NCBI GenBank assembly: GCA_964466295.1
Contig: CAYXRC010000003.1
Span: 407 to 64,406 of the forward strand
Length of the DNA: 64,000 nt
Direction of reading: 5' to 3'
Source of the DNA: an uncultured Ruminococcus sp.
GTDB taxonomy: Bacteria; Bacillota; Clostridia; CAKSNL01; HGM11501
The position numbers and the translations under genes were made by a program. Shown here piece after piece: positions 5,839 to 54,795 of the stretch. Every line of letters begins with the position of its first letter. Positions within the stretch are counted from its first letter, which is position 1. The notes below the pieces were generated by a model that saw only the letters and a program-made list of their open reading frames with translations, was not told the DNA's origin and ran no database searches.

Positions 5839-7053
5839 ATGGACAAAATAATTATGAAAACGCCTCTTGTCGAAATGGACGGAGATGAAATGACAAGAGT
5901 GCTCTGGAAAATGATAAAGGAGCATCTTATTCTTCCATATGTGGATTTAAAGACAGAATATTACGATCTCGGTCTTGAGCACAGGAACGAAACGGACGAT
6001 AAGGTAACCGTTGACTCTGCCGAGGCGACGAAAAAGTACGGCGTTGCGGTAAAGTGCGCCACTATTACTCCCAATGCCGCAAGAATGACTGAATATAATT
6101 TAAAGGAAATGTGGAAATCTCCCAACGGCACTATAAGAGCTATACTTGACGGCACCGTTTTCCGCACTCCCATTACGGTAAGCGGAATCACGCCCTATAT
6201 TCCCACTTGGACAAAGCCCATAACTATCGCCCGTCACGCATACGGGGACGTTTATAAAAACACCGAAATGCAAATTGCCGAGGGCTCGGAATGTTACCTT
6301 GTATCTTTTGACAAGGACGGAAACGAAACGAGAGAGAAAATCCATTCATTCAAGGACTCGGCAGGCATAATACAGGGTATTCACAATACCGATAAATCCA
6401 TAGAAAGCTTTGCAAGAAGCTGCTTTAACTTTGCTCTTGACTCTAAAAAGGATTTGTGGTTTGCAACAAAGGATACGATTTCTAAAAAATACGACCACAG
6501 ATTTAAAGATATTTTCGCCGAGATATTCGAAAAGGATTACAAGAAAAAGTTTGAAGAAGCTAAAATTGAGTATTTTTACACCCTTATTGACGACGTTGTC
6601 GCAAGAGTTATAAGGTCTGAGGGCGGTTACATCTGGGCATGCAAAAATTACGACGGCGACGTAATGAGCGATATGGTGGCAACCGCTTACGGAAGCCTTG
6701 CCATGATGACCTCGGTATTGGTTTCTCCCTCCGGAGTATATGAATACGAGGCGGCTCACGGAACAGTTCAGCGTCATTACTACAAATACTTAAAGGGCGA
6801 GGCAACGTCAACAAACTCCGTTGCGACAATCTTTGCTTGGACCGGCGCTTTAAGAAAGCGCGGCGAGCTTGACAAAACTCCCGCCCTTTCGGAATTTGCC
6901 GATAAGCTTGAAAAGGCAACCTTAGACACAATTGAAAGCGGATTTATGACAGGCGATCTTGCCGCTATATGGAAAGGCAATGTTCCTGCCGTAAAGCTCG
7001 AATCTGAGGAATTTATTGTAAAGGTTCAAAATACTTTAGAAAAGCTTTTATAA
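5839..7053 (+). CDS. icd: NADP-dependent isocitrate dehydrogenase (eukaryote-like ~400-aa subfamily)
   Basis: [13 protein letters not shown]...KCATITPN...IARHAYGD...DGDVMSD match the IDH1/2-type family. Follows aconitase by 15 nt. Confidence 0.9.
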
Positions 7054-7058
7054 AATAT

Positions 7059-7095
7059 AAAAAATGCCGCAAAGGTTTCCTTTGCGGCATTTTTA
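7059..7095. terminator. Bidirectional intrinsic terminator between icd and the ArsC-family gene
   Basis: Perfect 12-bp stem ATGCCGCAAAGG-TTT-CCTTTGCGGCAT flanked by A5 and T4-5. Confidence 0.85.
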
Positions 7096-7108
7096 TAGGT
7101 ATAAAGCA

Positions 7109-7459
7109 TTAAAGCTTGTCGGTCCAATCCTTTTCCTTAAATCCTACAAGCACAAAATCGTCGCTTACAAGAATCGGTCTTTTCACAAGCATTCCGTCAG
7201 AAGCAAGGAGCTTAAGCTGTTCGTCCTCGGTCATTTCAGAAAGTCTATCCTTAAGATTCATAGACTTATAAGCTTGTCCGCAGGTATTAAAAAACTTCTT
7301 AAGAGGCAGACCGCTTTTTTCGTGCCAATTTTTAAGCTCGTCAAAGCCGGGCTTGCTTTCTTTAATATCTCGGATTTCATACTCCTCATTGTGTTCGTCC
7401 AGCCACTTTTTCGCCTTCTGACAGGTGGTACATTTGGGGTAACAGATAAATTTTAACAT
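7109..7459 (-). CDS. ArsC/Spx-family thioredoxin-fold protein
   Basis: MLKFICYPKCTTCQKAKKWL...LVKRPIL pattern of the ArsC/Spx/YffB family. Start moved to the second ATG (GGAG plus 9 nt). Confidence 0.8.
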   Translation of the reverse strand: MLKFICYPKCTTCQKAKKWLDEHNEEYEIRDIKESKPGFDELKNWHEKSGLPLKKFFNTCGQAYKSMNLKDRLSEMTEDEQLKLLASDGMLVKRPILVSDDFVLVGFKEKDWTDKL

Positions 7460-7580
7460 ATAAAACATCTCCTTTTTATTTAAGGCTTTTTATTTAAACT
7501 CCGAAAGTCCTATACCACTTTGTCCGAGAAAAAAGGAATTTTCCGTAAAATCCTAAATACAAAAATTCATGCCGGAAAAT

Positions 7581-7609
7581 AAAAAAGCGCCTGAAACAGG
7601 CGCTTTTTC
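7581..7609. terminator. Intrinsic terminator downstream of the tRNA-Leu/tRNA-Ala pair
   Basis: AGCGCCTG-AAA-CAGGCGCT stem flanked by A6 and T5. Confidence 0.8.
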
Positions 7610-7615
7610 CTCAGT

Positions 7616-7691
7616 TGGTGGAGATATGGGGATTCGAACCCCAGACCTGTTACATGCGAAGCAACCGCTCTCCCAACTGAGCTATACCCCC
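7616..7691 (-). tRNA. tRNA-Ala(CGC)
   Basis: Hand fold: acceptor GGGGGTA with a G3:U70 wobble, anticodon loop TTCGCAT, T loop TGGGG-TTCGAAT-CCCCA, ACCA end. Confidence 0.85.
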
Positions 7692-7696
7692 GAAAT

Positions 7697-7785
7697 TGGT
7701 GCCCGAGACCGGAATCGAACCGGTACGACTTTTAACGGTCGCAGGATTTTAAGTCCTGTGCGTCTGCCAGTTCCGCCACTCGGGC
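7697..7785 (-). tRNA. tRNA-Leu(TAA), class II
   Basis: Acceptor GCCCGAG/CTCGGGC, anticodon stem CAGGA/TCCTG with loop CTTAAAA, long variable arm, GGTTCGATTCC T arm, CCA encoded. Confidence 0.85.
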
Positions 7786-8148
7786 TAACAACAAGATATA
7801 GAATACCACACTTTTTCTGTTTTGTCAATAGTTTTTATTGTCACATAACGACAAAAATTGAAAATTTAAAATAATTTTACCATTATATAGTGTAGACTTA
7901 TAAACCTTTGCCGTAATTTTTGCCTGCCCTGCCGCTTACCTGCCTCATCATACTATCCCTTTGACGGTTCATTTTACTTTTTATTAAAAAAAGAGCAAAA
8001 GGAAGCTTTTCTTGATGTGTATAAATTTTTACTTTGTCTCCTGCCTTTTATATAAAATATGCCTCATTTCCGTTTGGTACCTTGGCTTTAATTATTATTG
8101 TGCCGATTTACTCCTTTTATTCTGTCCTTTGCCGCCGCAATATTTTGC

Positions 8149-22423: not shown

Positions 22424-22473
22424 TTATTATCTACTCCTTTTTAATTTATATTTTTAGGGCTTGAGTTAAGTAA

Positions 22474-22642
22474 GGGGAAAACAATGAATAATAGAACCTG
22501 CTATTTTATACCTTAAAAATTCACTTTTTTCCTTAAACATTTACATTAGAATATGCAGGAATACTGGATTTTCTCGCACCCGATAGTATATGTAAATATT
22601 ATAAATCGGCAAACTAATGTTTTAAATTGTATGGACTTGACA
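22474..22642. repeat. Island intergenic module, copy 1
   Basis: ...AACAATGAATAATAGAACC...GAATACTGGATTTTCTCGCACCCGATAGTATATGTAAATATTATAAATCGGCAAACTAATGTTTTAAATTGTATGGACTTGACA is near-identical to 27434-27520 and similar to 25380-25443. Confidence 0.8.
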
Positions 22643-22676
22643 CGAGCACGACAGAACCGTCCCCTCGTGTCTTCAT

Positions 22677-23405
22677 CTATCCTATAAAGTGGTTTTTATA
22701 ATTAATGAACACTGTTTTAATCTTATGTAATTTATTGATATCATCAAATGGGTATTCTCTTAAACTCTCTAATACAGCATCATTTAATTCTAATGCCATA
22801 TTTTTAACACTGGCGTTTTTTATTAAATCAAAATAACTGTAATTTCTGTCATTAGAACAACTAGCTAATACATAAGGTAAAACCTTAATTAAATAAAAAT
22901 AGTTGGAAGTATCTGCATCCTCAAAATTAAACTTGTCTATATTCCATTCGCACAATGCCACATCATTACAAAATTTGTCCTTGTTCCTTTTTAGTACTCT
23001 GTTAGTCTTCAGTTCAACGATATACTCTATCCAAAACAGAGCAACGCAATATTCTATGTCTATCTCATCATTGTAACAAAAGGAATGAATATTAGGCATT
23101 ATTGTCTGCTCGTTGATATGACAAAGCTCATGATATAATGTACCCACTATTGAATTGAAGTTGTCATTACATTTTAAGACTTCAATATCGAATGTTGATA
23201 GCAAATCATATAATCTTTTTGATAAAAGAATAGTATTAGAATCCACCATTCTTCCATCACTCGATCCTGGTAATGAGTCGACAATTTCAATTTTTTTCAA
23301 GGATGAAAGATTAAAACCTTGTGCAAAAGTTGCAATTACATATTCATAGACATGACTTAAGAATACTTCATAGTTTTTATTGAATTCACAAACAAATACT
23401 GGCAT
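22677..23405 (-). CDS. HExxH-motif protein (putative zinc metallopeptidase-like), partner gene of cassette A
   Basis: 242 aa. The only recognisable motif is GTLYHELCHINEQ (H92-E-L-C-H96). AGGAG SD. Lies 60 nt downstream of zinc-ribbon nuclease 1. AT-rich. Confidence 0.6.
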   Translation of the reverse strand: MPVFVCEFNKNYEVFLSHVYEYVIATFAQGFNLSSLKKIEIVDSLPGSSDGRMVDSNTILLSKRLYDLLSTFDIEVLKCNDNFNSIVGTLYHELCHINEQTIMPNIHSFCYNDEIDIEYCVALFWIEYIVELKTNRVLKRNKDKFCNDVALCEWNIDKFNFEDADTSNYFYLIKVLPYVLASCSNDRNYSYFDLIKNASVKNMALELNDAVLESLREYPFDDINKLHKIKTVFINYKNHFIG

Positions 23406-23465
23406 AGCTGAATTCTCCTAAATCTTTGGATCATATTACCCCGAAGTGGTATTTTGAACAAATTT

Positions 23466-25139
23466 TCATCGGTCCTTTTGCTTTTTATTTTTTCTGCATA
23501 TAGGGCATCCATTGCCTTTATTTCTATTTTTTATTGTTGCTTGCCATTCGTGTCCTTTGCTACACTTCCACCATATTTTTTTGCTACTGTTAGGCATTAC
23601 ATCTTCAGGTGTTAATCCGTTGTTTTTTTCATAGTTCCATTCTTTCGCCAAAGAAGGATTAACAGTTTGCAAGTCATTATAGCCTTTTGAAACTTTTTTA
23701 CCCGAACAATATGGGCATCCACGCCCAGTATTTCTACTTATTATAATTGCTTGCCACTCGTGTCCTTTTGCGCATTTCCACCATACCTTTTTATTGCTAT
23801 TTGCTGCAAAATGTTCTGGTTTCAAATTGCCATTCTTTTCATAATTCCATTCTTTTGCCACTTGAGGGTTAGAAAACAAAAGAGAATTCGCTTTTTCTGT
23901 GTACTCACGCAAATTATCTATAGCAATAGTATCTCTTTCAAGATTGACATCAACACTTGTTCCAACTATTTCACATAATACTTCTTTTAATATTTTTGAC
24001 AAATCTTTTTGATTCTCTTGAACAATATAGTCTATAGAACTCCCATGTAAAGATGGTAACCCTTCTCTTATTCTATATAATTCTATCCCATCTTTTACAC
24101 ACTTTTGATTTTTATCTAAATCTTTTTTTGTTTTATTTTCATGCCAAAAACCACCATCATATTCTATAGCAATCTTTTTAGACGGAATATAAATATCTAA
24201 TTCATAGCCATTTTTTCTATACAAATGCACTGCGTCTAAACCGTATTTTTCAAGATAGTACATAATCGCATATTCGGGAAAAGAAGTGTTACGTTCTGAA
24301 TTACAAATGGGGCATCCGCGTCCATTATTTCTATTGGATATTTTTGCTTGCCATTCATGTCCTTTGTTACATTTCCACCACACAGTTATATTGCTGTTTG
24401 CCATGATATTTTCTGGTTTAAGCTCACCGTTTTTTTCATAATTCCATTCTTTCGCCAAATTCGGATTAACCGTTTTCAAATCATTTTCACCGGTAATCAC
24501 ATATCGTTCTGCACAATATGGGCACCCATTTCCACCATTTCTATTTGCTATCGCTGCTTGCCATTCATGACCTTTTCTACACTTCCACCATACCTTCTTA
24601 TTGCTATTAGGTAATACATCCGCAGGTATTATTCCATTATTCTTCTCATAGTTCCATTCTTTAGCTAAAATCGGATTAACCGTTTGTAAATCGTTATATC
24701 CACGTAAAACTTTTTTGCTTGAACAATACGAACATCCACGTCCTCTATTTCTGTCTGCAATCGTTGCTTGCCACTCATGACCTTTACTGCACTTCCACCA
24801 AACTTTTTTATTACTATTAGGCGCAACATCTGCTGGTGTTAATCCGTTATTTTTTTCAAAATTCCATTCTTTCGCCAAATTCGGATTAACCGTTTGTAAA
24901 TCATTTACGCCTTTAACAGCATATCGCCCAGAACAATAAGGACATCCATTCTCCTTATTTCTATTGTCTATTATTGCTTGCCATTCGTGTCCTTGACTGC
25001 ACTTCCACCATGTTTTTTTATGGCTACCAATAGTTAGTATTTCAGGGTTAAAATTTAATTCATTATTTTTTTCCCAGTTCCATTCAGCCATAAGTTGAAC
25101 ATTATCGCTCACATATCTTTTTTCTTTCTTTTCTGCCAT
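23466..25139 (-). CDS. Multi-zinc-ribbon (DUF4379-like repeats, 4+2) protein with a central Vsr/DUF559-like PD-(D/E)xK nuclease core
   Basis: Six repeats of K(V)WWKCxKGHEWQAxIxxRNxGxGCPYC. Central ELDIYIPSKKIAIEYDGGFWH...LYRIRE. The ATG at 25139 is preferred over the tracked TTG (AAGGAG plus 9 nt). Confidence 0.75.
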   Translation of the reverse strand: MAEKKEKRYVSDNVQLMAEWNWEKNNELNFNPEILTIGSHKKTWWKCSQGHEWQAIIDNRNKENGCPYCSGRYAVKGVNDLQTVNPNLAKEWNFEKNNGLTPADVAPNSNKKVWWKCSKGHEWQATIADRNRGRGCSYCSSKKVLRGYNDLQTVNPILAKEWNYEKNNGIIPADVLPNSNKKVWWKCRKGHEWQAAIANRNGGNGCPYCAERYVITGENDLKTVNPNLAKEWNYEKNGELKPENIMANSNITVWWKCNKGHEWQAKISNRNNGRGCPICNSERNTSFPEYAIMYYLEKYGLDAVHLYRKNGYELDIYIPSKKIAIEYDGGFWHENKTKKDLDKNQKCVKDGIELYRIREGLPSLHGSSIDYIVQENQKDLSKILKEVLCEIVGTSVDVNLERDTIAIDNLREYTEKANSLLFSNPQVAKEWNYEKNGNLKPEHFAANSNKKVWWKCAKGHEWQAIIISRNTGRGCPYCSGKKVSKGYNDLQTVNPSLAKEWNYEKNNGLTPEDVMPNSSKKIWWKCSKGHEWQATIKNRNKGNGCPICRKNKKQKDR

Positions 25140-25210
25140 AATACTCAACTCCTTTTAATTTCATTTTTCAACACTATTTGGCATCATTCTGCATCATTCG
25201 ACAGGATTTT

Positions 25211-25443
25211 TACTCGTGTCAAGACAGGAGAACAGTGAATAATAAGAACCATCACGAAATATAACGAAATCAAAGATTTCTATATTTCTGAGAACCTTGT
25301 TATGCTAAAGCATAATAGGATCTACTAACTTCCCCCTTTTTTTCAACTGATTTTTCCTTTAACAAAATCCATTAAACCCCGCGAGAATACCGGATTTTCT
25401 CGCTCCCGACTATTTATGTAAATATCATAAATCGGCAAACTAC
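25211..25443. repeat. Island intergenic module, copy 2 (with a ~70-nt internal insertion)
   Basis: TACTCGTGTCAAGACAGGAGAACAGTGAATAATAAGAACC ... CGCGAGAATACCGGATTTTCTCGCTCCCGACTATTTATGTAAATATCATAAATCGGCAAACTA. Confidence 0.8.
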
Positions 25444-25525
25444 CATATTTAATTATATTGATTTGCACAAGCAAAAACATAATAGAATAACCTACCATGT
25501 TTGCAAAAAAATACGTTTTTTGAAG

Positions 25526-27271
25526 TTATACGGCTCCTAAATCAGGTTTATCAACAAACAAAATCTCTTGTTTTCCTTTTATGCCATCTGATTCAAATAA
25601 AACTATTTCATTTTCTCCTTTTTTTAATACCGAAGCGGGAACATACAAGGTTTTCTGCGGTCCTTTGTCCCAATATCTGCCAAGATTAAAACCATTTATC
25701 ATTACAAAACCTTTAGTAAAATTGTCTGTATTTAAGAATGTATCGCATGGAACATCAACTTCAAACACTCCTCTATAAAACGCAGATGGTTCTTCCGCTA
25801 CATCTTTGGAATACAAAACATGGTCTATATTCTCCATAGGCAATGGATACACATCCCAGTTGAAATGAATTTTTCCATTTAGCATACATCTGCCGGCTAT
25901 ACCTTTTTTACGACTCATTTTAGGTCCAAAATTTGTTCTGCCCATATTTTCACAAAGAACTGTGAGCACATCACCCTGCTTTGCTGTAATGTCGATTTTT
26001 AATTCTTCATCGTTTATGTAAACAATTCCAACAAGATTTTTATTAATATAAATTTGTGCTCTGTCGCCAAGACTTTCAAACTTTAATTCTGCACCATTAT
26101 AATCACGATTTAATCTTGTCCGGTACGCAATATATCCATACCCCTGTCCGTAACTTTCCATACATTTGGGTACTTCTGAATGTATTGGAGAAGAAAGTCT
26201 TTCTAGATTATCAAAAATACCTCCTACTTCCGTAAGCTCTACCTTTCCGTATTCTTTTTTAGGTCTGTTCGGCGGAACTTCCGGGAGAGCTCCGTCAATA
26301 TATTTTTTCACCACATCACGGACTGCATAATATTTAGGAGTAACATCTCCACATTCAGATAATAGTGCATCATAATCATAACTTGTCACATCAGGAGCAA
26401 ACTTTTCATAATGATTTGCTCCGCTTGTAAATCCAAAATTTGTTCCACCTATGAACATATACATATTGAGGCTTCCCTTTTTAAGCATATCTTCTACAAC
26501 TTCTGCATACTTTTCTGCAGATGTGCAATGGTGTTTTTCATCTCCCCAGGCATCAAACCAACCACACCACATTTCCATACACATTTTAGGCGCATCGGGA
26601 AAAAGTTCATCATGAGCCATAAAGTTTTCTTCAACACGACTTCCGAAATTAAGCGTAGCAAAGCAACCTTCTACCATTCCGTCTAAAAGGCTTTCTTTTG
26701 AACTGCCATCTGAAGTAAAAAGCGGAATGTCTATTCCCTGTTCCCGGTAAAAATCAAACAAATACTTAAGATATTCTTTATCGTCACCATAGTAACCATA
26801 TTCGTTTTCACACTGCATCATTATAACAGGTCCACCGTTTGTACAAAGATACGGTCTTACCTCGTCAAATAGATTCTTAAGATAATTGCTGAAACACTTT
26901 ATATAATACGGATTGGAACAACGTATTTCCATTTTTTCATTTTCCTGTATCCACCAGGGCAATCCGCCGAATTCCCATTCTGCGCAGATATATGGTCCCG
27001 GGCGTACGATAACCATAAGTCCCTCTTCACCTGCTTTTTTGATAAAATCTGATATATTAAGATTGCCTGAAAAATCAAATTCTCCTTGCTTCTTTTCATG
27101 CATATTCCATGCGCAGTATGTTTCAACACAGTTACAGCCCAAGGCTTTCATTTTTTTGAAAATATCAGTCCATGTGTCAGACATATTACGGAAATAATGT
27201 ACAGCACCTGATATTATCTTTATAGGTTGCCCATCCCTATAAAACTGATTACCTTTAATCTCAAAAACCAT
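25526..27271 (-). CDS. Glycoside hydrolase family 35 beta-galactosidase
   Basis: 581 aa. GAVHYFR...TYCAWNMHE...RPGPYICAEWEFGGLPWW...QCENEYG is the canonical GH35 N-terminal catalytic pattern. Confidence 0.9.
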   Translation of the reverse strand: MVFEIKGNQFYRDGQPIKIISGAVHYFRNMSDTWTDIFKKMKALGCNCVETYCAWNMHEKKQGEFDFSGNLNISDFIKKAGEEGLMVIVRPGPYICAEWEFGGLPWWIQENEKMEIRCSNPYYIKCFSNYLKNLFDEVRPYLCTNGGPVIMMQCENEYGYYGDDKEYLKYLFDFYREQGIDIPLFTSDGSSKESLLDGMVEGCFATLNFGSRVEENFMAHDELFPDAPKMCMEMWCGWFDAWGDEKHHCTSAEKYAEVVEDMLKKGSLNMYMFIGGTNFGFTSGANHYEKFAPDVTSYDYDALLSECGDVTPKYYAVRDVVKKYIDGALPEVPPNRPKKEYGKVELTEVGGIFDNLERLSSPIHSEVPKCMESYGQGYGYIAYRTRLNRDYNGAELKFESLGDRAQIYINKNLVGIVYINDEELKIDITAKQGDVLTVLCENMGRTNFGPKMSRKKGIAGRCMLNGKIHFNWDVYPLPMENIDHVLYSKDVAEEPSAFYRGVFEVDVPCDTFLNTDNFTKGFVMINGFNLGRYWDKGPQKTLYVPASVLKKGENEIVLFESDGIKGKQEILFVDKPDLGAV

Positions 27272-27338
27272 AATTTTCTCTCCTATCTTAAATCATCTAT
27301 CATTTCAAATATTAAAATTTAACATAACTCACTCTTGG

Positions 27339-27520
27339 CTCGTGTCAAGTCAGGAAAACAGTGAATAATAAGACCTACTAACTTTTCCCTATTTTTTCAA
27401 CTGTTTTTCCTTTAACACTTTTCCTTAGAACCCGCGAGAATACTGGATTTTCTCGCATCCGATAGTATATGTAAATATCAAAATCGGCAAACTAATGTTT
27501 TAAATTGTATGGACTTGACA
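27339..27520. repeat. Island intergenic module, copy 3
   Basis: CTCGTGTCAAGTCAGGAAAACAGTGAATAATAAGACC ... CGCGAGAATACTGGATTTTCTCGCATCCGATAGTATATGTAAATATCAAAATCGGCAAACTAATGTTTTAAATTGTATGGACTTGACA. Confidence 0.8.
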
Positions 27521-27574
27521 AAAGTAAAGTCCTCCTATGTTTTCACTCGTGTACCCATATATTTCTCTTACTCA

Positions 27575-28342
27575 TTACATCTTCCCTCTTAACACGCTTT
27601 CTTTCAACAAAGCGGTGGGGTTATACCTATTAATCAATGTATCTAATAAAATTCTGTTTCCGTCAGACATTTTGGGACTAATTAATACTTCCATTTTATT
27701 AAAGCATCCATCATCTATTTTCAAATCAAAATAGTTTATTGGGAGTGTCACATTTCCAGCAAGCACTTCTTCATAAAAGTTGTTTCCATTATTCCAAGCA
27801 TTTGGCTTAATAAACCATAGTAAGTAACGCCATTCTTTTTGAAACTCCCAATACTTACTTTTATATTTTCCAAAAGGAGAAATCACTAAGCTTTTTTCAT
27901 CTTCTCCTAAAATTTTAGGTTCAAGGAGATTCAAATCATATGTATAATTCATTTTAACAAGAATACTTAATTTTTTATGTTCTGTAGTATATATTCCTTT
28001 TTGACGTAATTCTGATATTGGGATTAGTACATCATAATCAATTAATTCTCCAGTTTCTTTTACTGTTGCTTGTTCTGGATAACGTTTAAAAGGGTTTTTA
28101 GGCAATCCAATTCGCACACCACTTTCCATTGATGCATACATTTTCCACATAGGAATACTCTCTGTTGCTTCATCAGTCCAAGAACTAGCAAAAAATATTC
28201 TGCCAAAATTTTTCACATCACTTGACATGTTTTCTTGCAAATCATCCATTTTATCAAGAGGATTTAATCTAATTGTACGATTTCTTAAAATCAATGCCAA
28301 TTTATCAAGTGTTGTGTAATGATATAAAAATTCTTCTGCCAT
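27575..28342 (-). CDS. DUF2971-family protein, partner gene of cassette B
   Basis: 255 aa. The N-terminus FLYHYTTLDKLALILRNRTIRLNPLDKMDDLQE matches the DUF2971 signature (YHYT..L..IL....l.......NDp.E). Starts 12 nt after zinc-ribbon nuclease 2. Confidence 0.7.
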   Translation of the reverse strand: MAEEFLYHYTTLDKLALILRNRTIRLNPLDKMDDLQENMSSDVKNFGRIFFASSWTDEATESIPMWKMYASMESGVRIGLPKNPFKRYPEQATVKETGELIDYDVLIPISELRQKGIYTTEHKKLSILVKMNYTYDLNLLEPKILGEDEKSLVISPFGKYKSKYWEFQKEWRYLLWFIKPNAWNNGNNFYEEVLAGNVTLPINYFDLKIDDGCFNKMEVLISPKMSDGNRILLDTLINRYNPTALLKESVLRGKM

Positions 28343-28354
28343 AGTTCCCCCTTT

Positions 28355-30448
28355 TTATTTTTGCTTACTTCGCTTTTCTCTATAGCACTCCGGACACCCA
28401 CGCCCTTTGTTTCTGTTGATCACCATCGCTTGCCATTCATGACCTTGGCTACACTTCCACCATACTTTTTTATTACTGTTAGGCATTACGTCAGCAGGTG
28501 TTAATCCGTTATTCTTTTCATAATTCCATTCCTTTGCTAATGTTGGGTTAACTGTTTGCAAATCATTATATCCTTTTAAAACTTTTTTACCTGCACAATA
28601 TGGACATCCAGTTCCGTTATTCCTACTATATAACACTGCTTGCCATTCGTGGCCATTACTGCATTTCCACCATACTTTTTCCTTACTGTTGGGCATTACG
28701 TCAGCAGGTGTTAATCCGTTATTCTTTTCATAATTCCATTCCTTTGCTAAAGTCGGATTAACTGTTTGCAAATCATTATATCCTTTTAAAACTTTTTGAC
28801 CAGCACAATATGGGCATCCGTTTCCGTTGCTTCTATTAGATACGGTTGTTAACCATTCGTGACCTTTACTGCACTTCCACCATACTTTTTTGCTACTGTT
28901 AGGCATTACATCTTCCGGTGTTAATCCGTGGTTTTTTTCATAGTTCCATTCTTTCGCCAAAGTTGGATTAACTGTTTGTATATCATTTTTTCCTTTAGTA
29001 GCACATCGTCCTGAACAGTATGGGCATCCATTCCCTCTATTTCTACTATCAATCGTTGCTTGCCATTCGTGGTCTTTGACGCACCTCCACCATACTTTTT
29101 TCCCGCTATTCGTCGTGAAATGTTCTGGCTTCAAATTACCATTCTTTTCATAATTCCATTCTTTTGCTACTTCTGGATTGGAAAACAAAAGAGATTTTTC
29201 CTTTTCCGTATGTTCCCGTAAATTTTCTATAGCAATTGCATCTCTTTCTAACTCAACATCAACATTTCTACCAATTATTTCATTTAACACTTCTTCAAGT
29301 TTTTTTGATAAATCTTTATGATTCTTTAGAACAACAAAATCTATAGAACTATCATTTAGAGGTGCCAATCCCTCTCTTATCCTATAAAGTTTAATTCCAT
29401 ATTTTTTACACTTTTGATTTTTTTCCAAATCCTTTTTAATTTTGCTTTTATGCCAAAAGTATCCATCATATTCAATGGCAATTCTTTTTGATGGAATGTA
29501 AATATCTAATTCAAACCCTTTCTCTTTATAAGAATGTATTGTTTCTAATCCATATTTTTCAAGGTAATATAATAGCACATATTCAGGGAAAGAGGTGTTT
29601 TGTTCAGAATTACAAACCGGACATCCACTCCCATTAGTTCTGCTCCTTATCTCTGCTTGCCACTCGTGTCCTTTATTGCACTTCCACCAAACCTTTTGTC
29701 CGCTTTTCGCAGTAAATTGTTCTGGCTTTAAATTGCCATTCTTTTCATAATTCCATTCTTGCACTAAAGTGGGATTAACAGTTTGCAAATCATTATCACC
29801 TTTTAAAGCTTTTAGACCTGTACAATACGGACATCCATTTCCGTTATCTCTGTTATTTATCGTTGCTTGCCATTCATGACCTTTACTGCACTTCCACCAC
29901 ACTTTTTGACCACTATTCGCAGTAAAGTTTACAGGTTTTGAATCGCCATTTTTTTCATAATTCCACTCTTTTGCTAAAGTTGGATTAACTGTTTGTAAAT
30001 CATTGTCGCCTTTTAATACTTTGTTTCCCGAACAATATGGACATCCGCTTCCGGAATTTCTGCTACCTATTGTCGCTTGCCACTCGTGTCCATTGCTACA
30101 TTTCCACCATACTTTCTTACCGCTATTAGGCGTTACTTCCGCAGGTGTTAATCCATTATTTTTGTTATAATTCCATTCTTTTGCCAAAGCAGGATTAACT
30201 GTTTGCAAATCATTTTGACCTTTAACAGCAAATCTACCCGAACAATACGGACATCCAATCCCGCCTTTTCTACTATTTATCGTAGCTTGCCATTCGTGAC
30301 CTTTAATACACTTCCACCATACTTTTTTACCACTTCCAAGCGTTAACGTTTCAGGTTCAAAATTCAATTTGTTATTCTTGTCCCAGTTCCATTCATCCAT
30401 AAGTTGAGCATTATCGCTCACATATCTTTTTTCTTTCTTTTCTGCCAT
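28355..30448 (-). CDS. Multi-zinc-ribbon (4+4 repeats) protein with a central Vsr/DUF559-like nuclease core; paralog of 23466-25139
   Basis: Eight WWKC..GHEWQ....R..G.GCPYC repeats with a 70-aa period. Central ELDIYIPSKRIAIEYDGYFWH...LYRIRE. The 5' UTR and first ~35 codons are nearly identical to the paralog. Confidence 0.75.
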   Translation of the reverse strand: MAEKKEKRYVSDNAQLMDEWNWDKNNKLNFEPETLTLGSGKKVWWKCIKGHEWQATINSRKGGIGCPYCSGRFAVKGQNDLQTVNPALAKEWNYNKNNGLTPAEVTPNSGKKVWWKCSNGHEWQATIGSRNSGSGCPYCSGNKVLKGDNDLQTVNPTLAKEWNYEKNGDSKPVNFTANSGQKVWWKCSKGHEWQATINNRDNGNGCPYCTGLKALKGDNDLQTVNPTLVQEWNYEKNGNLKPEQFTAKSGQKVWWKCNKGHEWQAEIRSRTNGSGCPVCNSEQNTSFPEYVLLYYLEKYGLETIHSYKEKGFELDIYIPSKRIAIEYDGYFWHKSKIKKDLEKNQKCKKYGIKLYRIREGLAPLNDSSIDFVVLKNHKDLSKKLEEVLNEIIGRNVDVELERDAIAIENLREHTEKEKSLLFSNPEVAKEWNYEKNGNLKPEHFTTNSGKKVWWRCVKDHEWQATIDSRNRGNGCPYCSGRCATKGKNDIQTVNPTLAKEWNYEKNHGLTPEDVMPNSSKKVWWKCSKGHEWLTTVSNRSNGNGCPYCAGQKVLKGYNDLQTVNPTLAKEWNYEKNNGLTPADVMPNSKEKVWWKCSNGHEWQAVLYSRNNGTGCPYCAGKKVLKGYNDLQTVNPTLAKEWNYEKNNGLTPADVMPNSNKKVWWKCSQGHEWQAMVINRNKGRGCPECYREKRSKQK

Positions 30449-30544
30449 AATACTCAACTCCTTTTAATTTCATTTTTCAACGCTATTTGGCATCATTCAA
30501 ACTTATTCGACACAATTCTTACTCGTGTCAAGTTAGGAAAAAAT

Positions 30545-30922
30545 CTATTTTTTAAATTTATTTATCCAGCTTAAAATTTCATCATATTTCATATCCCCTG
30601 AAGCAACGGACAAACCTAAATCAACAACATCTGCATTTGAGCAATTCATTTTTATACCCTCTGCTTCTAAGAAAGTCAACATAACATATACACCGATTCT
30701 TTTATTCCCGTCAACAAATGCATGATTAGATATTAACGAATATCCAAGGCTCGCCGCTTTTTCCTCTTTTGTTTTATAAAGCTCTTCTCCGCCAAATGTG
30801 GCATAAGCATTATTAAGAGCACTTTCTAAAAGGCCAACATCTCTCACACCAACATCACCGCCTGTTTCCTCAGCAATCAGTTGGTGCAGGAGCAAAACCT
30901 TTTCTTTGTTTAATTTTATCAT
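30545..30922 (-). CDS. doc: Doc (death-on-curing) Fic-fold toxin
   Basis: 125 aa with the HAFVDGNKRIG Fic/Doc motif. Overlaps the upstream antitoxin gene by 4 nt. Confidence 0.9.
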   Translation of the reverse strand: MIKLNKEKVLLLHQLIAEETGGDVGVRDVGLLESALNNAYATFGGEELYKTKEEKAASLGYSLISNHAFVDGNKRIGVYVMLTFLEAEGIKMNCSNADVVDLGLSVASGDMKYDEILSWINKFKK

Positions 30923-31161
30923 TTTGCCAGCTCCTCAAACGCAGGCTTGAAACGATTCATAATCCTTTTTGCTGCTACATCAATTTTTTCATCATCAGTA
31001 ATATCAAAGTATGAATCAGACTCTAAATCAATGAGCAGAAATTTCGGTTTATTATTTTTAAATATAACCGCCTGACCGTTATTTTCTGCTACCTTGGCAA
31101 CCTTTGAAAAATTTTGATTTGCTTCTGTCATAGTTGTGATTGTATCAGTATTTATATTCAT
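30919..31161 (-). CDS. phd: Phd/YefM-family antitoxin
   Basis: 80 aa. TEANQNFSKVAKVAENNGQAVIFKNNKPKFLLIDLE matches the Phd/YefM N-terminal fold pattern. Translationally coupled to doc. Confidence 0.8.
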   Translation of the reverse strand: MNINTDTITTMTEANQNFSKVAKVAENNGQAVIFKNNKPKFLLIDLESDSYFDITDDEKIDVAAKRIMNRFKPAFEELAK

Positions 31162-44406: not shown

Positions 44407-44448
44407 CAAAAAGGCGCACTTACCTCCCACTAAAGAAGTAAATGCGCC
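44407..44448 (-). terminator. Expression-platform terminator of the ZTP riboswitch
   Basis: RNA GGCGCAUUUAC...GUAAGUGCGCC followed by UUUUU. Its 5' arm overlaps the CUGGGCGC 3' end of the aptamer. Confidence 0.75.
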
Positions 44449-44525
44449 CAGACGGTCGGCTTTAAAACTCCCTAAAAGCTTCTTTGTGGTGCTCCACTTA
44501 TCCGTCAGTCACTTAAAGGGGCTTA
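44443..44525 (-). ncRNA. ZTP (pfl-motif) riboswitch
   Basis: RNA GUGACUGACGGAUAAGUGGAGCACCAC...(linker)...GCCGACCGUCUGGGCG carries the conserved GACUGACGG, GUGG/CCAC and CCGACCGUCUGGGCG elements of ZTP aptamers. Located upstream of purE. Confidence 0.8.
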
Positions 44526-54449: not shown

Positions 54450-54629
54450 AGAGTTTTCCCGCGCCCTTTGAGCAATTTCGGTATGCAAAAATAAGCCCTT
54501 TTAAAATAAGTGCGTTAAAAGAGCGTAGCCGAAAAATACCGCTTCTTTATATGCTCTTAAACATATATTTTGCAAAGCGGCAACAAAGCAGGTCTTTTGA
54601 CTTAACGCCTTATGAAAAAATTCGCACTT

Positions 54630-54775
54630 TTATAGTCCTGCCTTCTCAGTTTCCCAATGACTGACTTTCGTCAACGGACTAAAAAGCTTCGGCGTATACA
54701 GCGACTGGTATCGTCCCGGATTCTCACCGGATTCCCTTTTCACCGTGCGTGCCTTTTTATGCGGCATGCACGACA
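54630..54775 (-). ncRNA. Cobalamin (B12) riboswitch aptamer
   Basis: RNA GGUGAAAAGGGAAUCCGGUGAGAAUCCGGGACGAUACCAGUCGCUGUA ... AGUCAGUCAUUGGGAAACUGAGAAGGCAGGAC matches the conserved GGUG..AA.GGGAA...GGUG..AAUCC....C.G...C.GC..CUGUA and GGGAAGGC-type elements. Confidence 0.7.
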
Positions 54776-54795
54776 CTTTGTGCATCAATATGGAA

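Follow-up and report, generated by a model that had tools for sequence, protein, structure and literature searches.

A stretch of 64,000 nucleotides (nt) from an uncultured Ruminococcus sp. (contig CAYXRC010000003.1; the whole stretch is called the window here) holds two neighbouring gene pairs, cassettes A and B, in which related large genes for zinc-ribbon proteins with a nuclease core are each followed by a different second gene. The question raised by this locus is whether such a pair is a two-gene defence system with an exchangeable partner, as an earlier reading of the letters alone (the sequence-only reading) had proposed, or whether the large gene anchors a unit that moves and takes other genes along. 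The analysis gave about an even chance to the latter, a mini mobile element anchored by the nuclease, whose passenger genes are often of defence type. The layout on which both readings build held up: the four open reading frames (ORFs) lie on the minus strand where they had been placed (Table 1), large gene and partner are separated by 60 nt in cassette A and 12 nt in cassette B, the large proteins are collinear, with 73% identity between A and B (401/552; 77.5% at the DNA level), and the two partners are mutually unrelated in sequence. No public names were found for the four cassette proteins.

Large protein A contained six stretches matching DUF4379 (E 8.6e-128) and protein B eight (E 5e-177). 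These are treble-clef zinc-ribbon modules, visible at the DNA level as 210-nt (70-amino-acid [aa]) tandem repeats in Tandem Repeats Finder (TRF). In both proteins the arrays flank a central PD-(D/E)xK core, spanning approximately nt 23880-24314 in A and 29189-29623 in B, which gave weak REase_MTES_1575/Vsr matches (PF18741 and TIGR00632 vsr). The AlphaFold model of the core (predicted local distance difference test, pLDDT, 84) found its best Foldseek match in the Protein Data Bank (PDB) in the homing endonuclease I-Bth0305I (3r3p; E 8.8e-4, probability 1.0, TMt 0.69), followed by Vsr (1vsr, probability 0.99) and a DUF559-type protein (3hrl, probability 0.99). As modelled, the core has a Vsr-like nuclease fold.

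Across 17 aligned core homologues the elements E-L-D, I-E-Y-D-G, W-H, D and K-N were invariant or nearly so, and the residues are present in both A and B. The core residues of protein A are E289 (PEY), D315 (ELD), E326/D328 (EYDG), H333 (WH) and D340, which on a manual mapping would correspond to Vsr E25, D51, H64, H69 and D97. The EDxHD family, defined in the description of I-Bth0305I, has an E, D, x, H, D set and an extra acidic residue two positions before the equivalent of Vsr H64, and its members occur in introns, inteins and free-standing genes (PMC3239194). The window core carries the conserved E, D, x, H, D set and has a further acidic residue where Vsr has F62.

Searches of the large proteins with PADLOC and NCBIfam returned a weak 'HEase' match (A, E 0.0024) and a weak vsr match (E ~0.007) and nothing else. 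A PDB profile search with the core alignment recovered DUF4379 modules in mitoribosomal proteins and did not match the nuclease. The solved structures with such modules (6sga_Fd, 7ane_at and 6yxx_E2) belong only to kinetoplastid mitoribosome or assembly-factor proteins (mt-SAF33, mS66). Because these modules occur in mitoribosomal RNA-protein complexes, the zinc-ribbon arrays may, by analogy, bind RNA rather than DNA. An allele of B found elsewhere, with 96% identity, was shorter by exactly one 70-aa unit, and ribbon counts among relatives ranged from 1+3 to 4+5 in large genes of 414-798 aa; judged from these comparisons, the number of ribbon modules changes quickly.

Relatives of the large protein were also found in phages. 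At least 333 were present on IMG/VR viral contigs, with up to three per contig, and 239 GenBank phage records contained matches. ORF50 of Sporosarcina phage Lietuvens consists of zinc ribbons followed by a C-terminal core and is encoded between the helicase and primase genes, and in a T5-like phage a relative annotated as 'endonuclease' lies directly upstream of nrdD. Such sites, next to helicase, primase or nrdD genes, are typical positions of free-standing homing-endonuclease genes (HEGs).

The chromosomal relatives were surveyed by scanning one genome per species, which yielded at least 448 relatives. The best 80 loci were analysed (loci outside the window are given as L numbers), and all of them came from gut metagenome-assembled genomes (MAGs) of Oscillospiraceae, Acutalibacteraceae, Christensenellaceae or other Clostridia. 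A tight partner, defined as a co-oriented gene of at least 100 aa within 100 nt, was present in 43 of the 71 loci that could be evaluated, and several partners overlap the stop codon of the large gene by 4-44 nt. The other 28 comprised three split-off fragments of the large gene (pseudogenes), 11 genes on the opposite strand and 14 loosely spaced genes. The partners formed more than 15 unrelated clusters, among which DUF2513 (7 loci), DUF5677, AbiTii, an AAA_15/21 ATPase matching GajA/AriA, a trypsin-like PDC-S45 protein and one HExxH protein were identified; partners of 236, 241, 121, 140, 268 and 221 aa had no significant Pfam match. By their domain matches, several partner families (DUF2971/PDC-S31, AbiTii, PDC-S45 and the GajA/AriA-like ATPase) are known or candidate defence genes. 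Members of one partner family turned up behind the nuclease in several species and beside differing tRNAs.

The pattern of a conserved nuclease with an exchangeable partner, which the sequence-only reading had drawn from two cassettes, therefore extends across the 43 loci and more than 15 families; the two-gene defence system that it saw in this pattern did not fare as well, since both window partner families also occur without the nuclease. The expected linkage likewise came out divided, with HExxH and DUF2971 partners rare beside the nuclease and 28 loci lacking any tight partner. Enrichment near known defence genes was not observed: the 141 flanking proteins were mostly housekeeping proteins, with about 10 defence-type matches, such as PDC-S01 (once), AbiU2 (twice) and MADS (three times). 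The upstream neighbours of the window subgroup were glycerate kinase, SDR, YeiH-like and DUF4364 proteins.

The units lay near tRNA genes far more often than expected. Co-oriented tRNA or tmRNA ends, counted within 700 nt upstream, lay 109-501 nt before the start codon in 33 of the 56 loci with enough upstream DNA, when about 0.5 of 56 would be expected from the density of other tRNAs in the same loci; there were two further loci with little upstream DNA, among them L058, where the tRNA is 76 nt upstream. The types were Pro (17), Leu (8), Ser (5), tmRNA (2), Tyr (1), Met (1) and Trp (1). In the Rfam searches the long upstream conservation proved to consist of tRNA genes and their flanks. At different tRNAs the CCA is directly followed by one and the same leader sequence.

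The mobility of the unit was seen in two different species, represented by a goat MAG (L021, at tRNA-Tyr) and a water-deer MAG (L022, at tRNA-Leu), which share 2,518 bp at 99.9% identity. The shared segment has sharp ends and contains the leader, the large gene, a DUF2513 partner and a 119-nt trailer. Its left end abuts ...CACCA exactly, which in L022 belongs to a copy, 25 nt long and displaced, of the 3' end of tRNA-Leu. This is a recent inter-species transfer of a 2.5-kb unit. In L022 approximately 135 nt (L022:8994-9152) lie between the genuine tRNA-Leu and the degenerate 25-nt copy, directly before the unit, and this interval may have been left by a previous integration at that tRNA.

Two trailer types were common to units with different partners, and in one of them the final stretch copies the 3' end of tRNA-Pro. 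Direct repeats of 32 to ~340 nt bracket the units in L033, L054 (nuclease only), L067, L090 and L040, and often start within the tRNA 3' end; the repeats that cover this end measure 65 nt in L067, 32 nt in L090 and 134 nt in L033, in addition to the end copy in L022. At five other loci (L089, L086, L066, L092 and L044) an inverted copy of ~9-17 nt of the tRNA T-arm/3' end was noted 40-60 nt downstream of the tRNA, in the first ~90 nt after the tRNA/tmRNA end and past the terminator hairpin; it could belong to a target site or be an att-like scar.

No tRNA gene adjoins the window cassettes. At their borders lie three copies of a repeat, U, which had gone unmentioned in the sequence-only reading, as had the GH35 gene between the cassettes. 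U is ~190 nt long with 11-bp terminal inverted repeats (CTCGTGTCAAG...CTTGACACGAG), and its 3' end recurs as the opening part of the leader in each of the large genes, the DNA similarity of A and B beginning ~90 nt 5' of the ATG at the CTTGACACGAG box. In the window lineage U seems to take over the role played elsewhere by the tRNA end and its flank. A variant of ~270 nt also exists, and the 3' end of U is promoter-like. A consensus scan for promoters and terminators gave counts near the shuffled expectation and predicted no terminator between large gene and partner. Rfam searches of the window, of the cassette region at a permissive threshold and of seven survey loci left U and the conserved leaders unmatched.

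Outside the window U was rare (7 metagenome matches). On one contig (L180) four co-oriented copies separate ORFan cassettes and a gene for a 300-aa GIY-YIG/DUF4357 protein (L180:4686-5588), and on a second contig two copies surround LysR and YitT genes; the U coordinates outside the window are L180:1659-5787, L184:389-2963 and L097:8147-11624. Another species (L059) has the same leader and a U trailer, and in L001/L003 the first ~115 nt past the stop codon of the HExxH gene, including ~70 nt of the start of U, travel with the cassette into a different context. U may be an element resembling a miniature inverted-repeat transposable element (MITE) or a recombination boundary.

Other strains of the window locus, found by exact-protein look-ups, differed in their content at these boundaries. 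In L095 the Phd-Doc region is fused directly to the MIF-like gene (window position 30527 joined to 22475) and the entire 8-kb block is missing. L097 and L098 have flanks 97-98% identical to those of the window and retain the beta-galactosidase gene with U3 and U2 at 97%, and here slot 1 holds a 475-aa protein and a PIN protein and slot 2 an acyltransferase (Acyl_transf_3; slots at 6176-8115 and 10432-11400 in L097, with matching positions in L098). The 475-aa protein had no Pfam or PADLOC match, and together with the PIN protein it may form a further two-gene module, as yet uncharacterised. Homology of L097/L098 to the window runs to 30492, inside leader B, and is followed by different cargo; the strain breakpoints are located in the leader and U repeats.

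At least two copies of the large gene per genome were found in three other genomes, and the window has two. Large genes were split or N-terminally truncated at L026:1697-3582, L068:145-1728 and L016:10052-11050, and these pseudogenes or truncated copies fit a cycle of invasion followed by decay. With strain polymorphism, multiple copies, pseudogenes and a 99.9% identical unit in two species, the family shows a selfish type of distribution.

The two window copies had been taken for recent paralogs because of their nearly identical leaders and first codons. This was not sustained by the wider comparison. Four other species carry the ~90-nt leader at 92-94% identity, and the N-terminus MAEKK(EK)xYxxDNAxLMAEWNWEKN is found family-wide, so that recent duplication or gene conversion was rejected as the explanation of the 5' identity. 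The DNA identity of A and B is 0.88 in the first 200 nt and 0.64-0.82 thereafter, and the core of A is 80-84% identical to copies from other species vs 71% to B. Since the A core is nearer to other-species copies, and leader and N-terminus are shared throughout the family, A and B probably go back to separate acquisitions.

When co-inheritance with partner or tRNA type was examined in a neighbour-joining tree of the 161-aa cores, the types were scattered or the branches unresolved; pairwise DNA comparison was informative. Between loci with a common partner, the C-terminal array, partner and trailer were 85-93% identical and the N-terminal array and core 72-77%, with the breakpoint of identity near the end of the core, and cassette A compared with L001-L004 behaved alike. 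This block co-inheritance may reflect simple linkage, with recombination within the repeats.

Partner B matched DUF2971 (PF11185) with E 1.4e-8 and 36.4 bits against a cutoff of 22, and gave a weak PADLOC match to PDC-S31 (E 2.6e-6). DUF2971 has been classed as ADP-ribosyltransferase-like, near DarT, and is the sole domain of Aristaios, a validated single-gene abortive-infection antiphage system of 316 aa. Partner B homologues with 43-48% identity are encoded within dense defence islands (SIR2, RVT, Macro, NUDIX, SLFN-helicase, NERD) that have no zinc-ribbon nuclease, and one at 30% (E 5e-22) stands alone on lactococcal dairy plasmids. The identity of this plasmid protein with Aristaios itself was considered and left unconfirmed, its 260 aa comparing with the reported 316 aa. 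None of the 80 survey loci had a DUF2971 partner beside the nuclease. The gene does not stand alone at the window locus; its homologues do. The PADLOC examination of all four cassette proteins, proposed with the sequence-only reading, gave two weak matches, to PDC-S31 and HEase, and no other model for the nuclease.

Partner A belongs to a rare family, which in a set of 1.84 billion representative proteins forms only 118 clusters at 50% identity, or 26 at 90%; a full-length member has ~225-270 aa, and H92, E93, H96, E99, E127 and E131 are invariant. The protein had no significant Pfam or PADLOC match and no PDB sequence match, and a profile search gave nothing meaningful. Its model (pLDDT 92) weakly matched gluzincins, namely the M1 aminopeptidase family (probability 0.91, TM 0.35), and, also weakly, phage CobT/VWA-associated proteins, which are putative phage metallopeptidases (probability 0.96-0.97). 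The HExxH partner was found in one of the 80 survey loci and in L001-L004. Homologues at 90% identity have the nuclease upstream at the same 60-nt spacing and differing downstream contexts. A homologue at 59% follows a Type ISP restriction enzyme without the zinc-ribbon nuclease; such genes lie 34 nt after the enzyme, beside helicase, resolvase and integrase genes. Another at 48% precedes a 647-aa protein without Pfam match, the spacing in such homologues being 10 nt and the neighbours resolvase, ParB and Phd/ParE (HExxH homologue loci L007:816-4799 and L005:2116-4830). This suggests a general accessory role for the HExxH family at mobile or defence loci. Because both partner families are found without the nuclease, the partners can exist independently of it.

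Table 1. Features of the cassette region in the window (coordinates in window positions; UTR, untranslated region; SD, Shine-Dalgarno sequence).
Feature	Coordinates	Strand	Description
Large gene A	23466..25139	-	557 aa; 4 DUF4379 modules, central nuclease core, 2 modules
Partner A, HExxH protein	22677..23405	-	242 aa; rare orphan family; putative zincin-like metallopeptidase fold
Large gene B	28355..30448	-	697 aa; 4 zinc-ribbon modules, nuclease core, 4 modules
Partner B, DUF2971 protein	27575..28342	-	255 aa; PF11185; ADP-ribosyltransferase-like family
Leader of gene A	25140..25232	-	begins at CTTGACACGAG (-35-like TTGACA); holds 5'UTR and SD; equals 3' end of U
Leader of gene B	30449..30544	-	same CTTGACACGAG box and 5'UTR
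U1 boundary repeat	22458..22646	-	downstream of cassette A, upstream of MIF-like gene; 11-bp terminal inverted repeats
U2 boundary repeat	25312..25476	-	between beta-galactosidase gene and cassette A; long variant, ~75-nt insertion before leader
U3 boundary repeat	27337..27533	-	downstream of cassette B, upstream of beta-galactosidase gene
GH35 beta-galactosidase gene	25526..27271	-	resident, separates the two variable slots; context only
Phd-like/Doc toxin-antitoxin pair	30545..31161	-	upstream flank; context only

The description of the surroundings as an AT-rich island adjoining a Phd/Doc pair was accurate: the GC content of the cassette region is 0.32-0.37 vs 0.39-0.51 nearby, and Doc matched Fic/DOC in Pfam with E 1.2e-16, the Phd match remaining below the Pfam cutoff. 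At the left edge of the window a 434-aa tyrosine integrase (1120-2424, +) lies beside tRNA-Ser (2486-2576, -), together with a small helix-turn-helix (HTH)/excisionase-like ORF (799-1014, +) and a pemK RNA motif (669-725, +). This group resembles a classical integrated element and has no apparent relation to the cassettes. Elsewhere in the window a cobalamin riboswitch (54570-54795, -) and a ZMP/ZTP riboswitch (44439-44522, -) scored above the Rfam gathering score.

Under the mobile-element reading, the unit would be one without a recombinase, in which a promoter-bearing leader precedes the large nuclease gene, followed as a rule by a single passenger gene and then by a short trailer. The large protein would be a free-standing enzyme of homing-endonuclease type whose ribbon arrays most likely read a long DNA target. 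We infer that this nuclease drives insertion, by cutting or nicking a conserved site into which recombinational repair would then copy the unit. The target would be the tRNA or tmRNA 3' end with its flank in most relatives and the U repeat in the window lineage, and the outcome would be direct repeats of the target on either side. The downstream gene would be co-transcribed cargo, often an autonomous single-gene protein of abortive-infection (Abi) or other defence type, represented in the window by the DUF2971 ADP-ribosyltransferase-like and HExxH metallopeptidase-like proteins. Such cargo would defend against phage and, by benefiting the host, help the unit persist.

A homing-endonuclease-like role, which the sequence-only reading had kept as its main alternative, fits better than its first choice, given the I-Bth0305I fold, the free-standing phage relatives, the tRNA 3' ends, the transfer and the strain polymorphism. 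A genuine two-gene anti-phage system, in which the nuclease would sense or cut invading nucleic acid, the variable partner would be its effector or co-factor and the units would ride small islands beside tRNAs, is unlikely, although several observations speak for it. Tight co-oriented partners are the majority state, some of them overlapping the stop codon; no terminator is predicted between the genes; a given partner family is met again behind the nuclease in other species and at other tRNAs; and the C-terminal array and partner are inherited as a block, with the pair co-transferred. However, both window partner families exist without the nuclease, and Aristaios, with the same DUF2971 domain, is a single-gene system. 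The nucleases without a tight partner, the housekeeping flanks, the lack of a PADLOC model for the nuclease other than the weak HEase match and the homing endonucleases among its closest fold and phage relatives also argue against such a system, and defence alone leaves the placement at the tRNA CCA end unexplained. Several of the same observations nevertheless weigh against the mobile-element reading. Coupling as tight as these overlaps, with co-inheritance of the C-terminal array, could mean that the two proteins work together, and the block pattern may indicate that the C-terminal array acts with the partner or with the partner DNA. The partner folds (ADP-ribosyltransferase, proteases, ATPase, membrane-like) resemble the swappable effectors of modular defence. 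The nuclease is central, vs C-terminal in the published phage HEGs, and homing by nuclease-driven cutting is here a proposal. Classical homing leaves the target unduplicated, yet these units are bracketed by direct repeats, a pattern that also fits an integrase acting in trans or plain homologous recombination. The scarcity of recombinases, too, comes from an iterative search of limited sensitivity with three seeds (one integrase and two resolvases), which found recombinase-like ORFs in 1 of 80 loci, outside the unit.

Another reading sees the units as cis-mobilisable mini-islands, moved by a trans-acting tyrosine integrase or by homologous recombination between repeats, in which the nuclease would be mere cargo of a restriction-like or repair kind. 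Repeats with the last 23-32 nt of the tRNA bracket L067 and L090, and L022 carries the copy of the tRNA-Leu end, all of them att-like scars of the classic kind; the window-locus breakpoints fall in the U and leader repeats, as fits plain recombination; and the window itself has the integrase beside tRNA-Ser. This reading is quite unlikely all the same: the nuclease is the sole gene common to all units, the repeats vary from 32 to ~340 nt and consist mostly of non-conserved downstream flank with no fixed att core, the spread over several tRNA types (Pro, Leu, Ser, Tyr, Met, Trp) and tmRNA would be unusual for a single integrase, and the three-seed search placed a recombinase-like ORF near just one of the 80 loci. 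Very improbable is an addiction or toxin-immunity pair, with a nuclease toxin neutralised by its partner or the reverse. The tight operon by Phd/Doc and the resemblance of DUF2971 to DarT-type toxins suggested it; it was rejected on the diversity of the partners, as more than 15 unrelated folds cannot all neutralise one nuclease, and many nucleases lack a partner and the partners are enzyme-sized.

It is possible, and is put forward tentatively, that these units form an undescribed class of nuclease-driven, recombinase-free elements, in which a rapidly reshuffled modular array on both sides of a central Vsr-like nuclease would serve as a programmable DNA reader, and the unit would home to tRNA/tmRNA 3' flanks or U, shuttle single-gene immune genes among species of gut Clostridia and duplicate the target, the C-terminal array co-evolving with the cargo. 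If the nuclease does drive insertion, small immune genes would be exchanged between bacteria without integrases, transposases or plasmids, and some of the tiny variable islets beside tRNA genes would be explained. The protein is moreover a naturally occurring nuclease joined to a tandem ribbon array that varies by whole units; should a few base pairs be read by each 70-aa module, biotechnology would gain a new modular scaffold for DNA recognition. The survey itself yields more than 15 compact candidate defence genes, many without a known domain, marked by a common neighbour, and the HEG outgroup reported in 2025 gains a testable chromosomal biology.

Among known systems, I-Bth0305I (PDB 3R3P; PMC3239194) is closest in the fold of the core, in the residue set and in a bipartite design, with DNA-binding modules (putative ones in the window proteins) beside a Vsr-like nuclease. 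It differs in that the window proteins have 6-8 treble-clef zinc ribbons for putative DNA binding, not NUMOD/HTH modules, and in that the nuclease of their family is central, not C-terminal, and encoded in chromosomal copies that lie next to tRNA genes and carry a passenger gene. Endonucleases of phage group I/II introns with three to five ~60-aa CapR/DUF4379-like domains and an EDxHD/Vsr-like domain have been described, and such zinc-ribbon-array nucleases were flagged as a large HEG outgroup that had gone unrecognised, its unannotated relatives numbering in the thousands (PMC12350094, 2025). These CapR/DUF4379/DUF723-array HEGs share both domain types with the window family; however, their nuclease is C-terminal to 3-5 modules, a layout found also in Lietuvens ORF50, and they lie inside introns, whereas the window family has four modules, the nuclease and two or four further modules. 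Chromosomal free-standing copies, cargo, tRNA-end placement and two-sided arrays are undescribed in that work (PMC12350094). Aristaios and PDC-S31 are related to partner B through the PF11185 domain, but Aristaios acts alone and partner B lies directly behind a nuclease gene.

A functional parallel is offered by SegB of phages T4/T6, a free-standing HEG that is reported to be often tied to tRNAs and to duplicate or amplify adjacent segments with immunity-related genes (PMC13096335). The present elements resemble it in being free-standing and, in most relatives, tRNA-associated, and would likewise take neighbouring segments along, but SegB acts in phages and amplifies anti-defence loci, whereas the window elements are bacterial and their cargo is defence-like. 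SegB is also of the GIY-YIG nuclease family, unlike the window core. With tRNA-targeted islands the units share the placement at tRNA/tmRNA 3' ends and direct repeats that include the tRNA end, and with integron-like arrays the short cassettes separated, at the window locus, by a repeated boundary element. They differ from integrative islands and integrons in that the three-seed search found no integrase in or near the units and in that the repeats are of variable length, and from integrons in that U has its 11-bp terminal inverted repeats and a promoter-like box, without attC features. No description of the chromosomal biology, the central-nuclease layout, the tRNA-end placement with variable repeats or the cargo swapping was found in the literature. 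The components of these elements belong to known kinds; their chromosomal biology, central-nuclease layout, tRNA-end placement and cargo swapping are new.

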